Assembly (NCBI GenBank): GCA_965243025.1
Contig: CBDETY010000003.1
Location: 1,056,001-1,120,000 of the forward strand
Reading direction: 5' to 3'
DNA from: Candidatus Latescibacterota bacterium
GTDB taxonomy: Bacteria; Latescibacterota; UBA2968; UBA8231
DNA length: 64,000 bases
In this document: piece after piece, positions 29,642 through 35,212 of the stretch
Numbering within the stretch: position 1 is the stretch's first letter
Layout: the number at the start of each line of letters is the position of its first letter
Translations under genes and position numbers: made by a program
Notes under the pieces: generated by a model
What the model saw: only the letters and a program-made list of their open reading frames with translations
Databases searched by the model: none
Told to the model about the DNA's origin: nothing

Positions 29642-30400
29642 TCAGTACCCCAGGCCGCGCAAGTAGTCGCGGTTACGGCGAATGCTCTCCTCCGCTGGCC
29701 GCCGGCCCCCCGGCAGGACCACCACCCACCCCGAGAACCCCAGCTCCCCCTCGAGCGCGGACAGGAACCTGCCGTAGTCGCACAGGGGGCCGTCGTCGAG
29801 GTCGGCCGGCTCCTTCCCCTTCCTTCCGTGCAGGTGGACGTAGGCGATCCTGCCTGCGAACTCCCGCGCCGCCGCGGCCGGATCGCATCCCCACAGCACG
29901 GCGTGCATGACGTCGAGGCAGAGGCGGCAGGTCTTCAGCCGCGGCATGAACCGCCGCCACTCGCCGGCGCTGTCGACGAAGTGGTTCTCGTGCGGGTGCC
30001 AGGTCACCGCGACCCCGAGCCGGTCCCCGTGTTCGGCGAGGTCCTCGTAGACCGCGGCGATGCCGTCGAGCTCGGTGTCCGGGGAAGGGGAGACCTCCCC
30101 GTGCCCGGGACCCTTGGTCATGAACAGCCCGACCCCGAGGTCGGCGGCGTACTCGATGCGGCGCCTGCAGATCTGGTGCGCCGGGTCCGCGGTGGAGCGC
30201 GTCGCGTTGGGCCCGGTCACCGCGGCGATCTCGATGCCGGCGTCGGCGCACAGGCGCAGCAGGCGCCGCGGCGGGCCGAGCAGATCGAGGGGCTCGCGGG
30301 TCTCCCACCCCTCGTAGCCGCTCGGGGCGAGCAGGGCGAGGTTGCGCTCGAGCTCCTCGTGGGGCCAGGTCAGGCTGCTGCAGGCGAAGCGGAGGGTCAT
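29642..30400 (-). CDS. Sugar phosphate isomerase/epimerase (xylose-isomerase-like TIM barrel)
   Basis: GYEGWE, HPH, LCLDVMH, YVHL, GFSGWVV. Confidence 0.8.
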   Translation of the reverse strand: MTLRFACSSLTWPHEELERNLALLAPSGYEGWETREPLDLLGPPRRLLRLCADAGIEIAAVTGPNATRSTADPAHQICRRRIEYAADLGVGLFMTKGPGHGEVSPSPDTELDGIAAVYEDLAEHGDRLGVAVTWHPHENHFVDSAGEWRRFMPRLKTCRLCLDVMHAVLWGCDPAAAAREFAGRIAYVHLHGRKGKEPADLDDGPLCDYGRFLSALEGELGFSGWVVVLPGGRRPAEESIRRNRDYLRGLGY

Positions 30401-30513
30401 CGTTCCCTTTCCGGTTTATGGCGGCGCAGTCGGATGCCCCGGGCGAGTCCGTCGCGGATTCCGCCGCGGCCGGGGAATCGGGGGCCGGCGCCGGAGTTCG
30501 CTTGCAGGCGGCC

Positions 30514-30963
30514 TCAACCGGGCGGCGGCTGGAACAGCTCCATCGGGATGCCGTCCGGGTCCTCGATGTACACCCCCCAGGCCCCCTTGTTGGCGCCGTA
30601 GTCGACTTCGACCGGGGCCGAGCGGACGACCACCCCGCGGGAGCCCAGCTCCTCGCAGGCGGCGTGGATGTCGTCGACGAGGAAGGCGATGTGGGAGCTG
30701 CCCGGGCGGTTGACGGGGGGAACCGCGGGGGCGGCGCGCGGGTGGGCGTACTCGAACAGCTCGAGCACGTGGTCGGATCCGGGAATGCGCAGCTGCGCCG
30801 CCTTCACCACGCAGTCGGGAAAACCGACGATGGCGCGGAAGTAGCTCTCGACGATCTCCCGCTCCCACACCACCTCGCAGCCGAGAAGCCCGCAGTAGAA
30901 CCGCTTGGACCGCGCCAGGTCGGAAACCGTGTACGACGTGTGCGCCGCTCCGGAAACTTTCAC
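30514..30963 (-). CDS. VOC family protein
   Basis: HTSYTVSDL..S..FY, HIAFLVDDI, DPDGIPMEL. Confidence 0.9.
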   Translation of the reverse strand: MKVSGAAHTSYTVSDLARSKRFYCGLLGCEVVWEREIVESYFRAIVGFPDCVVKAAQLRIPGSDHVLELFEYAHPRAAPAVPPVNRPGSSHIAFLVDDIHAACEELGSRGVVVRSAPVEVDYGANKGAWGVYIEDPDGIPMELFQPPPG

Positions 30964-30975
30964 GTCAGTCCTTTC

Positions 30976-31749
30976 TCAGAAGAAGGAGTAGGCGCCCCAG
31001 CCGCCGTCGATCTTCAGGGTCTCGGCGGTGATGAACGAGGCTTCGTCGCTGGCGAGGTAGAGGACGGCGTCGGAGACCTCGCGCTTGGTTCCGAGCCGCC
31101 GCATCGGGGTGCGCCGCTCGTACGCGTCGACCGTGGCGGTGCCCTCGGTCAGCCCTTTTTGGACCATCTCCGTCATCACCACCGCCGGGGCGACGCCGAC
31201 GACGCGCACCCCGCGGTCCGCCCACTCGATCCCGAGGGCTTCGGTCAGGGCGATCAGCCCCGCCTTGGCGGTGCCGTAGGCGACGCGCTGCTCGATCGGG
31301 AAGCAGCCGATGATGGAAGCGACGTTGACGATCACCCCCCGCCCCTGTTGCAGCATGGGGCGGGCCGCCGCCTGGGAGCAGTAGAAGGCCCCGGAGAGCA
31401 TGACGTCGACGCTCTCGCGCCACTGCTCCGGCGGCAGGGTTTCCGCCGGCCCCTTGTGGGCGACCCCGGCGTTGTTGACCCAGACGTCGACACCGCCCCG
31501 CTCGCCGGTCACGGCCTCGACCAGGCCGGCGCTCGAGGCCGGATCGCGCACGTCGAGAGGATGGTAGACGGCCTCGATGCCGTCGCCGCGCAACTGGTCG
31601 GCAACTGCCCGCCCGGCGGCAGCGGCGATTTCGGCGACCACCACGAAGGCCCCGGCCTCGCCGAAGCGGCGGACGATGTCCGAGCCGAGACCGCCGCCTG
31701 CGCCGGTGACCACCACGGTCCTGCCGGAGAAGTCAGGCCCCGCCGTCAT
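30976..31749 (-). CDS. Short-chain dehydrogenase/reductase
   Basis: VTGAGGGLG, NNAG, YGTAK, IDGG. Confidence 0.92.
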   Translation of the reverse strand: MTAGPDFSGRTVVVTGAGGGLGSDIVRRFGEAGAFVVVAEIAAAAGRAVADQLRGDGIEAVYHPLDVRDPASSAGLVEAVTGERGGVDVWVNNAGVAHKGPAETLPPEQWRESVDVMLSGAFYCSQAAARPMLQQGRGVIVNVASIIGCFPIEQRVAYGTAKAGLIALTEALGIEWADRGVRVVGVAPAVVMTEMVQKGLTEGTATVDAYERRTPMRRLGTKREVSDAVLYLASDEASFITAETLKIDGGWGAYSFF

Positions 31750-32530
31750 CTTCGGGAAAGCCGACGGCATCGAGGTTGCCCCAGGGCACCCAGCCGCCGT
31801 CGACCCGCAGGTTTTCCCCGGTGATGTAGGAGGCGCGGTCCGACACCAGGAAGAGGACGGCGCTGGCGACCTCCTCGACCTCGGCGATCCGCCCGAGGGG
31901 GGTGCGGTGGCGGTAGCGGTCCATGGAGGAGGCGCCAGAGGCCATGATCTTTTCGATCATCTCCGTCCGTGTGACCCCGGGGGAGACGCAGTTGAGGCGG
32001 ATGCCGTGCTGCGCCCATTCGCTCGCCAGCACCTCGTTGAGCACGATGACCCCGGCCTTGGCGGCGTTGTAGGCCGCCCGCATCGGCCATCCGCCCATGC
32101 CGCCGATCGAGGCGACGGTGACGACGTTGCCCGACTGCTGCGGGATCATCGCCCGGCCGACCACCTCCTGAGTGGTGAAGAAGACGCCGTTCAGCAGGAC
32201 GTCGATCTGGCGGCGCCAGTCCTCCTCGGGAAACTCCTCGGACCGGTGGGCGGTGAAGATGCCGGCGCTGTTGACGAGGATGTCGATGCGCCCGTGTTCG
32301 TCCAGCACGGCATCGACCAGGGCGGAGCAGGACTCCGGCCGGCTGACGTCGAGCTGTATCGCCCGGGCGCGGTACCCCTCCGCCCGCAGGCCCGCGGCCG
32401 CCTCTTCCCCGCGGTCCGGGACCAGCTCGCCGATGACCACCCGCGCCCCCTCGCCGGCCAGGGCGCGGGCGACTCCGAGTCCTATCCCCTGGCCGGCGCC
32501 GGTGACGACCGCTGTCCGGTCCTCGAGCAT
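31733..32530 (-). CDS. Short-chain dehydrogenase/reductase
   Basis: VTGAGQGIG, NSAG, YNAAK, VDGG. Confidence 0.92.
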   Translation of the reverse strand: MLEDRTAVVTGAGQGIGLGVARALAGEGARVVIGELVPDRGEEAAAGLRAEGYRARAIQLDVSRPESCSALVDAVLDEHGRIDILVNSAGIFTAHRSEEFPEEDWRRQIDVLLNGVFFTTQEVVGRAMIPQQSGNVVTVASIGGMGGWPMRAAYNAAKAGVIVLNEVLASEWAQHGIRLNCVSPGVTRTEMIEKIMASGASSMDRYRHRTPLGRIAEVEEVASAVLFLVSDRASYITGENLRVDGGWVPWGNLDAVGFPEDDGGA

Positions 32531-32540
32531 GACGCGGCGC

Positions 32541-32819
32541 TCAGGGGCCCTTAACGGTCCGGTCTCCGAGGTGTTCCTTCATTCTGGAGATCAGCTCGTC
32601 GTCGTCGGCGCTCGCCAGCACCATCTCCGAGAACTCCTCCGACTTCAGCTCCGCTTCCTCCAGGAAGCGCTGGTCGGCCGGTCACGGGAAGATGTAGTCG
32701 CCGATGCGCCCGGCCTGCCAGGCGCGCGCCTTGTCCGCTATGCGGGCGAGCCAGGGAATGCCGCCGATAACGAGTCCCCGGGCCCGGGGTTTGAAGTCGA
32801 GGTTGTCCGATTCGCTCAT
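32541..32819 (-). CDS. DUF5069-like small protein, probable selenoprotein (in-frame TGA at codon 46)
   Basis: Manual translation: MSESDNLDFKPRARGLVIGGIPWLARIADKARAWQAGRIGDYIFP-U-PADQRFLEEAELKSEEFSEMVLASADDDELISRMKEHLGDRTVKGP*. AGGAG RBS upstream; fills the gap between neighbouring genes; hairpin follows the TGA. Confidence 0.78.
32639..32677 (-). promoter_or_regulatory. Putative bacterial SECIS hairpin
   Basis: After UGA (32684-32682): CCGAC-CAGC-GCUUCC-[UGGA]-GGAAGC-gga-GCUG-aa-GUCGG; the apical loop starts 20 nt after the UGA with G at loop position 2. Confidence 0.7.
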
Positions 32820-32876
32820 GGTTGTTGCTCCTGAATCAGGGGTCGGGTGGGTGAAACAGGCTGTAAATCCGTGAAT

Positions 32877-33926
32877 TCACTTGCTTCCGGCATCGACCCG
32901 GCCGGGTTCCGAATCCCGCATCCTCACAATCCATTCAGGGGAGAGGAGACGGGCGAACTGCCTCCTCAAGCCCGTGGTCATGGTATCGTCCCCGAGGGGG
33001 GCGGCGACCGCGGCGCAGAGCTGGCGCAGCCGCAGGTCCGGCTGCCGCCATGCCTTCAGAAGCGCCCGGTGCGGCTCGTGCCCGGGGCGGTCGAGGGCTC
33101 CGCAGAGCCTGGCCGCGGCGTTCAGGTGGAAGAGGATGTGGTGGCCATCGAGGGCGAACGCCCTGCGGGCCCGGCCACCCGGGGCCGAGCGCGCGTACCG
33201 GCGGGCGGCGGTGCGGTCGAGGAGGCCGGCGAAGCCGCCTTCGGCGCCCGCTCCCAGGCCGGTGGCGTACTGCACCAGCCTCCGCTCCGGCCAGTCCCAG
33301 CCGATCTTGGCGAACTCGATGAAGCTGACGGCGCCGCTGCCGGGGTCGACGACGACGTTGCGGGCGTTGTAGTCGGTGCTGCCGAGGCTCGGCTCCTCAC
33401 CGGCGAGCCGGGAGCAGAGCTCGTCGATCAGTTCCTCGAGCTTCCGGAGAGCCGGCCCGTCCCCCTGCCCGAAGCGGCGCAGAAGTCCGTGCAAGCCGTC
33501 CAGGGCGCCGCCGCGAACCTGGTCGAGGACGGCCGGGAGCCGGTCGCGGGAAGCAGCGGGAGAGACGTGGGGCTCCAGCTCCGGCCGGCAGTCGGCGAAG
33601 GCCTGCTCGAGCCGCAGGAACCCGCTGACGAGCCGCTCCCGCAACCGCTGGCGGCTCTCCGGGCCGGAGCTGCGGGCCGCGTCGTCCAGGGTCTCGTCTC
33701 CCACGTGCTCGAAGAAGATGATGCCCGCCGACGGATCGGAGCCCAGAACCCGGGGCACCGGGCATTTCCGTTCCCCCAGCAGGGCGAGAACCCGCTGTTC
33801 CACGGCGAGCAGGTCGTCGGCCCGGCCCCGGGTGAGGCCGGCGAAGGGCTGGCGCTTGGCGACGGCGCGGCGGCCGCCGTCGAGGTCGAGCCTCCAGACC
33901 CCGGCTGCCAGTTCGGTCGCGGTCAC
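32877..33926 (-). CDS. Aminoglycoside-phosphotransferase/choline-kinase-like protein with atypical motifs
   Basis: AVAK, CPVPRVLG, FEHVGDETL, STDYNARN, FIEF; GTG overlaps the upstream stop. Confidence 0.7.
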   Translation of the reverse strand: MTATELAAGVWRLDLDGGRRAVAKRQPFAGLTRGRADDLLAVEQRVLALLGERKCPVPRVLGSDPSAGIIFFEHVGDETLDDAARSSGPESRQRLRERLVSGFLRLEQAFADCRPELEPHVSPAASRDRLPAVLDQVRGGALDGLHGLLRRFGQGDGPALRKLEELIDELCSRLAGEEPSLGSTDYNARNVVVDPGSGAVSFIEFAKIGWDWPERRLVQYATGLGAGAEGGFAGLLDRTAARRYARSAPGGRARRAFALDGHHILFHLNAAARLCGALDRPGHEPHRALLKAWRQPDLRLRQLCAAVAAPLGDDTMTTGLRRQFARLLSPEWIVRMRDSEPGRVDAGSK

Positions 33927-34300
33927 TCTTCCCCGAACAGGATGATCTGGGAGGAGAGCTTGCCGGCCTGGTTGTTGTGTTCGGGATTCTCGTTCATCGC
34001 CAGGTGGAGCAGTCCGTCGCGGTCGCAGAGGAAGTCGTGGCGGCTGCCGACGGCGAAGGGCGGGCCGTCGTCGCCGACGCGGGCGATCAGCATGCCGACG
34101 TTGGCCCCGGGCAGCAGGTATCCCTCCTCCGCCGGGAGGTTGTACACCCCGTCGGCCCCGCACCAGGCGATCTGGTTGCGCATGTCCGGCGACCAGACCT
34201 CCTCGGTGTCGATGACCACCCGCTGTCCCCGGCGCAGGCGGATCAGGGTATCCTGCCACTCGGGGCTGGGGCGGACGGTGCGGATGACGGTCAGTGCCAT
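33923..34300 (-). CDS. LecA/PA-IL-like lectin-fold small protein
   Basis: WQDT.I.L..GQ.V.I...W, G.LIARVG...PF.VG, G.L.LAMNE...NN.G pattern; no signal peptide. Confidence 0.6.
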   Translation of the reverse strand: MALTVIRTVRPSPEWQDTLIRLRRGQRVVIDTEEVWSPDMRNQIAWCGADGVYNLPAEEGYLLPGANVGMLIARVGDDGPPFAVGSRHDFLCDRDGLLHLAMNENPEHNNQAGKLSSQIILFGEE

Positions 34301-34544
34301 GGTCCTTCCTGCGGGGTTCGGCCGCCTGTGGCGGCGGTGTGAGGAACGTCGATGCTCGCCGGATCCGGGGCATGCCCAAGATAGGCCGGGACCGCCGGGA
34401 GCGTCCATTGCCCACCCCGGCTCCTCCAGGGCCGTCGGCCCTCCACTCCTGTCTGGTTGTCCGGCTCGTCCTGGTCCCCTTCCCGATTGCTCAGTACAGC
34501 CCCGCCATCCGCAGGCCCGGGGACTCGGTACTGGCGCGGAGAGA

Positions 34545-34976
34545 TCAGTGCCGGATCAGGACAAGGGCCTGGAGGCCGCCGGGAACTCGTGAGGGATCGA
34601 TGTGGGAATCCAGAGTGGCGAAACGGCCGCCGCGATGTACGGCCAGGGCCAGCAGGTAGGCGTCGGTAAGCTGCTTCGAAGTGATGCCCTGAAGTGACGG
34701 CAGCGTGCGACTGTCGGCCGCGGAGATGCTGTCCTCCCAGAACAGGTGCCCCGGTACGGAACGCAGGCGCTGGAGCAGAGGCCGGACCTTTTCAGGCGAC
34801 CCGGGCCCTCCCGGGTACCCGGGGTGACCCATGACCCGCAGCAATCCGTTCTCAGTCAGTGGGCAGGTTACCCAGCCTTCAGCCCGGTATGCGCGGAACC
34901 ACTGCGCTGCCGGGCGATGGTGGACGTGATCGGCGTCGCAGAGCGCGACGAGGAGGTTCACGTCCAGCAGGTTCAC
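34545..34976 (-). CDS. vapC: VapC PIN-domain toxin
   Basis: LLDVNLLVAL, TCPLTENG, QLTDAYLLALA...G..ATLD. Confidence 0.92.
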   Translation of the reverse strand: MNLLDVNLLVALCDADHVHHRPAAQWFRAYRAEGWVTCPLTENGLLRVMGHPGYPGGPGSPEKVRPLLQRLRSVPGHLFWEDSISAADSRTLPSLQGITSKQLTDAYLLALAVHRGGRFATLDSHIDPSRVPGGLQALVLIRH

Positions 34977-35212
34977 CCGGTCTCCTCATCCAGAAGCCTC
35001 CCGACGATTTCCGCGGTAACGCGGGCACCCCGGGAAGGAAGGTGGGGCAAACCGTCATCGTCCACCTCGAAGAGGGCCGGCGTTGAAGCGCCGTGGTGAA
35101 CCTCTCGTTCGAGAGCGTGGGTGACTATGGCCTTCAGAGTGGTGCCGCGGCGGGCTGCCATGGCCTTCGCCGCACGCAGGAGGGCATCGGGAAGCTCGAT
35201 GGTCGTCTTCAT
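34973..35212 (-). CDS. vapB: VapB-type RHH antitoxin
   Basis: MKTTIELPDALLR.AK..AA..GTTL..IV..AL; overlaps vapC by 4 nt. Confidence 0.88.
   Translation of the reverse strand: MKTTIELPDALLRAAKAMAARRGTTLKAIVTHALEREVHHGASTPALFEVDDDGLPHLPSRGARVTAEIVGRLLDEETG

Follow-up and report, generated by a model that had tools for sequence, protein, structure and literature searches.

An in-frame UGA in a short DUF5069 gene of a Candidatus Latescibacterota bacterium very probably encodes selenocysteine

Introduction

Can a short reading frame that is interrupted by a UGA codon be one intact gene, with the UGA read as selenocysteine (Sec)? This question is raised by positions 32,541 to 32,819 of the 64,000-nucleotide stretch of DNA that we analysed (hereafter the window), which comes from a Candidatus Latescibacterota bacterium (GenBank assembly GCA_965243025.1, contig CBDETY010000003.1, positions 1,056,001 to 1,120,000 of the forward strand). 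An initial annotation of the window had picked out a hidden frame there, had placed it in the DUF5069 family, and had proposed that Sec is inserted at its UGA with the help of a hairpin immediately downstream. In bacteria, the SECIS element is a stem-loop that lies directly 3′ of the UGA, with a G needed in its apical loop and a distance criterion to be observed, and E. coli fdhF is the canonical example both of such an element and of recoding by SelB. In known bacterial systems, the decoding of UGA as Sec competes with termination.

Results

A DUF5069 reading frame interrupted by a single UGA

Reading the window sequence directly, we found 92 sense codons on the minus strand that run from an ATG at 32819-32817 (coding sequence 32819-32544) to a closing TGA at 32543-32541. 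The frame contains a single in-frame TGA at codon 46 (32684-32682), in the context GDYIFP-U-PADQRF. It is preceded by a ribosome-binding site, AGGAG (32832-32828, minus strand), 8 nt 5′ of the ATG, and the ATG of the next gene, at 32530, lies 10 nt beyond the terminator. The frame, its sole interruption, its ribosome-binding site and its spacing to the next gene were all re-found here as the initial annotation had described them. When translated with table 11 the frame is visible only as two open reading frames of 45 and 44 aa. The encoded 92-residue protein contains no Cys.

With U replaced by C, the product matches PF16798 (DUF5069) with 60.2 bits (cut-off 27), residues 11-87 being aligned to profile positions 4-80 of 133. 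Note that because the match ends at profile position 80 of 133, the C-terminal third of the domain is absent; the protein, which stops at residue 92, is not a full DUF5069 domain. The two halves of the product align independently to consecutive stretches of the profile (28.2 bits for positions 4-37 and 18.3 bits for positions 42-80), such that the homology expected beyond the TGA of a genuine selenoprotein gene is present in the form of DUF5069 matches on both sides of the codon.

The initial annotation had also placed the TGA on the signature Cys of the DUF5069 family. In a profile-free exhaustive search we recovered 324 representatives at E ≤ 1e-3, the best 150 of which contain 167 domain matches; in these matches the column of the TGA is Cys in 114, Ser in 28, some other residue in 10, and uncovered in 15. 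Cys thus occupies the column in 114 of the 152 covering domains from the best 150 of the 324 representatives, as well as at the aligned site of a protein of known structure (3omd, see below), which agrees with the assignment. Within the same 150 representatives, single-domain proteins of 106-200 aa have Cys in 79 of 87 cases and multi-domain proteins mostly have Ser. (The window's own genome encodes a three-domain paralog of 433 aa, at C3:4138490-4139740, or 1039-2340 on the minus strand of locus L012, that has no Cys at any of the Sec columns.) Public full-length relatives have Cys at the column in 64 cases by pattern match and in P0040 by eye. The motif that surrounds residue 46 is Y-x-[YF]-P-C/U-P-x-D.

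Sec and Cys alternate at one column

We searched 61 related genomes, the window's own included, in all six frames and found an ortholog of ~90 aa in 51 of them, in each case at E ≤ 7.6e-20. All 51 orthologs were extracted, and they range in length from 87 to 94 aa. At the column of codon 46, 41 of them have TGA and 10 have Cys. Another 80 loci came from scanning named genome records for a pattern; 24 of these duplicate the 51-ortholog set, and the 80 divide into 67 with TGA and 13 with Cys. Their records name them as MAGs from Candidatus Latescibacterota, Gemmatimonadota/-etes and Candidatus Poribacteria, together with a few other labels. The resulting 107 non-redundant orthologs, which as relatives are not independent samples, comprise 91 with TGA and 16 with Cys, and no other residue or codon occurs at the column. 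Such pairing of TGA with Cys is what the initial annotation had named as support for its proposal.

A tree of the 107 orthologs, in which the Sec column was masked, calls for at least five changes between TGA and Cys, two of which are forced by well-supported branches. A second Cys, seven residues upstream of the Sec column, is confined to one genus.

We entertained the idea that what was once a DUF5069 gene has been cut in two by a nonsense mutation, leaving either a pseudogene or two small genes. This would account for the 45-aa and 44-aa frames given by table 11, and also for public gene calls that contain the halves (P0067-P0069) and for representatives that end at query residue 45. Several findings argue against it. 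First, the identical TGA column is kept in frame in 91 non-redundant orthologs from several lineages, and additional in-frame stops are absent from all 51 orthologs of the first set. Second, homology extends beyond the TGA in every one of these 51, and the codons downstream of the TGA are under purifying selection: the TGA forms gave a median dN/dS of 0.20 over the 36 codons that precede the TGA (505 of the 820 pairs being usable) and of 0.31 over the 36 that follow it (476 of the 820). Third, because the TGA is followed by the residues P/G/A-A-D, no conserved start codon is available for separate translation of the second half. Finally, the hairpin described below is conserved only in the presence of the TGA. 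On this evidence a pseudogene or a pair of small genes is exceedingly improbable.

It could also be argued that recoding is regulated or inefficient, so that the 45-residue peptide is the main product, the full-length protein appears only under selenium supply, and the UGA is chiefly a selenium-dependent switch, and the competition between Sec decoding and termination in known bacterial systems gives this proposal a basis. However, the C-terminal half is under purifying selection (the dN/dS of 0.31 given above) and the Cys forms can yield the full-length protein only, and we regard the proposal as improbable. Note that it is a refinement of the selenoprotein reading and no true alternative to it.

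A conserved stem-loop accompanies the UGA

The initial annotation had drawn, downstream of the TGA, a hairpin of 15 bp in three parts whose loop is UGGA. The minimum-energy fold of the UGA together with the next 51 nt is a hairpin of just this description, which begins at the fifth nucleotide after the UGA (32677-32639, minus strand). Considered alone, this hairpin is only mildly unusual; it folds at -22.7 kcal/mol (z = -2.12), and because 6 of 200 dinucleotide shuffles were as stable, it is not compelling by itself. What sets the hairpin above chance is the comparison across genomes of its upper 7 pairs in the 91 TGA-bearing orthologs. In particular, when the 91 TGA forms were aligned (80 distinct rows, with columns 16-22 paired with columns 27-33), 95.5% of the cells of the 7-pair upper helix were paired, a value that was reached by none of 500 shuffles. 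Shifting the 3′ partner by 1-3 columns lowered the pairing to 31-69%. Pair 18-31 is GC in 45 rows and CG in 35 and is never unpaired, and pair 17-32 is UA in 26, GU in 22, AU in 21, GC in 10 and something else in 1. The Poribacteria-type loci (L110-L145), 31 of 31 of which have the TGA form, carry a third compensated version of the stem, AUGUUCC...GGAACAU. Covariation of this kind within a coding region could in principle reflect the coevolution of amino acids, but the pairs are exactly Watson-Crick or wobble.

The conserved SECIS core in the window consists of the 7-bp stem CGCUUCC/GGAAGCG (32669-32652, minus strand) and the loop UGGA (32662-32659). Across the TGA forms the core has a stem of 6-7 bp, the start of which lies 12-13 nt from the UGA, and the element coincides in part with codons 51-56. 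The two lower helices, for their part, are only 59.5% paired across 41 TGA forms; they are lineage-specific and were rejected as conserved structure. The hairpin as originally drawn is thus correct as a fold of the window, but conservation is confined to its loop and its upper 6-7 bp.

Next to these pairs, the codons that make up the core differ in their constancy between the two forms of the gene. The UGGA loop is present in 91 of 91 TGA forms versus 4 of 16 Cys forms, the CTG codon for L53 in 91 of 91 versus 11 of 16, and the TTC codon for F52 in 89 of 91 versus 9 of 16. Codon 55 ends in A in every one of the 91 TGA forms (GAA in 85, GGA in 6 and GAG in none), whereas in the Cys forms it is GAG in 6 and GAA in 5. 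Residues 51 and 56 change together in the manner that the pairing dictates: R occurs with A or V, H with V, K with L, and M with H. The recoding element would in this way fix codons F52-L53-E54-E55 from within the coding sequence and oblige residues 51 and 56 to change in concert.

Pairing in the helix amounts to 75% in the 16 Cys forms, a level also attained by 66 of 500 shuffles, and pair 18-31 is broken in 9 of the 16. Moreover, in one genus there are two Cys forms that each carry one stem-breaking change absent from their TGA-bearing congeners. The covariation across TGA-bearing homologs, which the initial annotation had put forward as a check, was therefore found, together with its decay in the Cys forms. 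Because relict stems persist in several Cys forms, the direction of change is suggested to have been from Sec to Cys. The locus would be a clean natural case in which an RNA signal constrains a protein sequence and decays after the switch from Sec to Cys.

Like the canonical bacterial elements of selD and fdhF, the hairpin lies within the coding sequence 3′ of the UGA and has a short GC-rich upper stem and a small G-containing loop. The selD of this same genome is similar in spacing and geometry, with a 6-bp stem and a 4-nt loop, GGUC, that follow the UGA after 11 nt, compared with a 6-7-bp stem after 12-13 nt here. The UGGA loop has the G expected of a bacterial SECIS; unlike the SelD loop it is without the GU and is not of the GGUC type. 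A further difference from the canonical elements is that no Rfam model matches (a scan of 32500-32850 at E up to 10 returned no matching family, only one IRE_II and one lncRNA hit at chance level).

Sec machinery in genomes that carry the gene

The assembly that contains the window (6.8 Mb in 3 contigs) encodes SelA (457 bits), a SelB wing-3 domain within a 661-aa open frame, SelD (362 bits, contig C3:31883-32806, locus L009) and one tRNA-Sec with the anticodon UCA. The presence of selA, selB, selC and selD in the genome was a further check named at the outset, and each component was found. (SelD has one in-frame TGA at the canonical position, and is a selenoprotein itself; the 11-nt spacer, 6-bp stem and GGUC loop mentioned above follow that TGA.)

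When SelA was scored at E ≤ 1e-40 across the 61 genomes, it was found in 40 of the 41 genomes with the TGA form, and the SelB wing domain was found in 39 of them. Five of the 61 genomes have neither SelA nor SelB. Three of these, G008, G022 and G024, carry the ortholog and have it in the Cys form, and they are all of the ortholog-bearing Cys-form genomes without the two proteins; a fourth, G011, has no ortholog; and the fifth, G005, has the TGA form and is represented by an assembly that is 81% complete and in 810 contigs.

These observations also bear on the possibility that TGA has been reassigned genome-wide to Trp or Gly, as in codes 4 and 25. One public protein of 91 aa, P0073, has W at the Sec column in what is otherwise a typical TGA-form sequence, apparently as a result of a caller that used TGA as Trp. 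Against a reassigned code, SelA and SelB have unbroken frames under table 11, a dedicated tRNA-Sec and SelB are encoded in the genome, and among the 107 orthologs the column pairs with Cys and never with a Trp or Gly codon. Furthermore, TGA terminates the DUF5069 gene itself, and it is the ordinary terminator in 14 of the 51 orthologs (9 of the 41 with TGA at the Sec column, 5 of the 10 with Cys there). Because TGA doubles as an ordinary terminator, a reassigned code can be set aside with near certainty.

On the strength of the Sec/Cys column, the SECIS core, the machinery, and the purifying selection downstream of the TGA, we consider it very likely that the frame at 32819-32544 on the minus strand is one intact 92-residue selenoprotein gene with Sec at codon 46, as the initial annotation had proposed. 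Comparison of sequences thus shows the gene, its recoding signal, the pairing of Sec with Cys and the machinery to be present. In the decoding that we propose, the ribosome would not stop at the UGA of codon 46; the stem-loop in the mRNA would recruit SelB with Sec-tRNA(Sec), and selenocysteine would be inserted.

The TGA codon in other sequencing runs

A simpler explanation for the interruption would be an error of sequencing or assembly, the true codon being TGC or TGT. Three DNA runs that belong to other studies, and one metatranscriptome, have contigs over 32682-32684, and no letter other than those of the TGA was found there. Note that because none of the pieces listed has at least 31 nt on both sides of the codon, the support that these contigs give against an error is modest. 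The TGA is, in addition, kept in 91 non-redundant assemblies. Together these findings leave the error that the initial annotation had allowed for with scarcely any probability, and we take it to be ruled out.

Contigs from one RNA run, X19, cover 32475-32864 at a depth of ~4-5. Because DNA carry-over is possible in this run, we make no claim of expression from it.

In several runs, the summed depth of metagenome contigs rises 10- to 40-fold over 32636-32707, the stretch that contains the Sec codon and the core of the hairpin, and many contigs end at the edges of this high-depth stretch. Such a peak would be expected if a sample contained several related organisms with a nearly invariant element in common.

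Gene neighbourhood

On the minus strand of the window, a gene for a kinase-like protein of ~345 aa (32877-33920, start approximate) is followed after a gap of 57 nt by the selenoprotein gene and then by two genes for short-chain dehydrogenases/reductases, after which comes one for a glyoxalase-fold protein. The first dehydrogenase gene (31733-32530; adh_short_C2, 220 bits) begins 10 nt after the stop codon, and the second (30976-31770) lies downstream of it. Upstream of the kinase-like gene are a gene for a protein of ~126 aa that belongs to no Pfam family (33923-34303) and, upstream of the cluster, a pair of genes for a VapB antitoxin and a PIN-domain (VapC-like) protein (34545-35212), all of them likewise on the minus strand. 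The selenoprotein gene and the downstream dehydrogenase genes are probably co-transcribed; a scan of 30300-34600 for promoters and terminators gave no promoter-like site and one terminator-like site, which is on the other strand and at shuffle expectation. The arrangement of selenoprotein and dehydrogenase genes is not among the neighbour clusters common to other loci.

We compared 76 loci of at least 2.5 kb each (31 short sequences and 24 duplicates having been dropped), of which 45 are of the non-Poribacteria type and 31 are of the Poribacteria type. No other neighbour is as conserved as the kinase-like gene, which lies upstream and on the same strand in 35 of the 45 non-Poribacteria-type loci, and the family-less protein of ~125 aa is encoded further upstream in 32 of the 45. 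A GT2 glycosyltransferase is found in 29 of the 45 loci, and an FNR-type reductase (NAD_binding_1) whose gene begins approximately where the selenoprotein gene ends is found in 25; the window locus has no FNR-like neighbour. In 21 of the 34 loci listed, the end of the kinase-like gene and the start of the selenoprotein gene overlap by 4 nt, instead of which the window has its 57-nt gap. The 31 Poribacteria-type loci have UPF0182 (30), PheA (30) and QueG (27) instead, in the order UPF0182, selenoprotein gene, PheA, QueG. Because of these loci, the conserved gene order is only a partial guide to function.

The kinase-like family has an invariant K, E, D..N and D, as in a protein-kinase-like fold. 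The protein in the window belongs to no Pfam family, a match to Bud32 (E 0.006) being below the cut-off, and for it and the 126-aa protein together Pfam gave nothing except DUF5397 at chance level (E 0.09). Neither protein matched any PDB sequence at E up to 1. A complex prediction for the kinase-like protein and a Cys-form DUF5069 protein (from locus L021, with alignments) scored 0.01 against a mark of 0.32, and we give it no weight either way. From the gene order we infer that the kinase-like enzyme, whose upstream gene is translationally coupled to that of the selenoprotein, is probably the partner with which the selenoprotein works.

Fold and predicted role of residue 46

An AlphaFold model of the protein (pLDDT 77.4, pTM 0.67) is mostly helical, with helices at residues 24-36, 47-55, 60-69 and 73-84, and residue 46 directly precedes helix 47-55, at its N-cap. 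A Foldseek search of the PDB with this model gave a single match, 3omd (E 1.7e-3, TMq 0.71, rmsd 2.0 Å over 73 columns, 36% identity), the next having E 3.5. The sequence of 3omd, a 145-aa protein of Leptospirillum rubarum without an assigned function, also matches (E 7e-10), and it has Cys at the aligned site. A search of the ESM Atlas with a Cys ortholog returned DUF5069 clusters only, with scores of up to 0.88. The window protein thus has family, fold and signature motif in common with DUF5069 Cys proteins such as 3omd, and differs from them in having Sec for Cys and in being shorter.

A thioredoxin-like fold is absent from the model and from among the Foldseek matches. Because the window protein is without any Cys, it has no resolving Cys and no UxxC or CxxU motif, and in both respects it differs from redox selenoproteins of the thioredoxin-fold and CxxC types. 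Five basic residues, R12, R14, R26, K30 and R32, are invariant.

These features, namely the position of the residue in the model, the conservation of the motif and the order of the neighbouring genes, are the bases for what we say about function, whether redox or nucleophile chemistry or partnership with neighbours, and this we hold with much less certainty than the selenoprotein reading itself. Sec46, which would take the place of the signature Cys at the N-terminus of helix 47-55 in a small helical protein, is the probable active-site residue of the family. The most economical reading is that the selenol would be a reactive centre, either nucleophilic or redox, placed at the N-terminus of a helix and next to the invariant basic residues. 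The redox- or metal-active role that the initial annotation had suggested for the residue is likewise putative. A more specific proposal, which we put forward as tentative and rather doubtful, is that the protein is the selenol-bearing part of an unrecognised enzyme system with a non-thioredoxin fold, acting together with the kinase-like enzyme and, in many relatives, with an FNR-type flavin reductase; such a system might, for example, carry out redox chemistry or group transfer that depends on Sec and acts on a phosphorylated substrate. If this were so, the SECIS element would dictate six codons of an enzyme component, and residues 51 and 56 would be set by RNA pairing and not by protein function. 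More generally, because Sec/Cys pairs mark reactive residues, the alternation described here points out the functional residue of DUF5069, and given that a crystal structure of the domain already exists (3omd), the function of the domain is directly testable at the Sec/Cys site.

Relation to known selenoproteins and public annotation

The mechanism of recoding proposed here is a standard one, and it is the fold and the lack of a partner Cys that are atypical of known selenoproteins. Table 1 of a 2026 review (PMC13188914), which covers 119 families or subfamilies, includes DUF-type selenoprotein families that were predicted on the basis of Sec/Cys pairs, namely DUF523, DUF166, DUF1573, DUF1858 and DUF3179. 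The DUF5069 protein resembles these in the kind of evidence available (a TGA/Cys column, a SECIS element and Sec machinery) and in that its function is likewise unassigned. Most families in that table have a thioredoxin-like fold or a UxxC/CxxU motif; the DUF5069 protein has neither.

PF16798 is absent from Table 1 of PMC13188914, and the window protein matches no NCBIfam family at E up to 1, and with this every family for which the review gives an NF or TIGR accession is ruled out. The DUF5069 family is also not named in the parts that we consulted of a 2022 review table (PMC9312934), of deep-Sep (PMC12013277), of BSepDB (PMC13326102) and of the GOS study (PMC2398784). No main-text mention of 'DUF5069' or 'PF16798' was found in the selenoprotein literature searched, and '3OMD' turned up there only as an abbreviation for unrelated things. 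The GOS_A family of PMC2398784, in the parts consulted, comprises 2 Sec sequences given in a figure or supplement only. PMC9312934, as far as consulted, lists GOS_A with no conserved domain, and this argues against its being the same as the short DUF5069 family. The initial annotation had not known DUF5069 as an established selenoprotein family, and the sources just cited, within the portions covered, agree. The gene is unannotated, and the short DUF5069 selenoprotein family is absent from the main texts of the inventories covered. Its 91 non-redundant TGA forms come from MAGs that bear the labels Gemmatimonadota, Latescibacterota and Poribacteria, and it would be a well-supported addition to the prokaryotic selenoproteome.

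The selenoprotein reading also corrects the annotation of the family in public collections, where calls hold the TGA forms as halves and, once, with Trp. In particular, the TGA forms appear there as fragments that end one residue before the Sec, about a dozen representatives of which are present beyond P0073. The public Cys forms are named 'DUF5069 domain-containing protein' or 'hypothetical protein', with the exception of one that is named RlmL, which looks like a mislabel.
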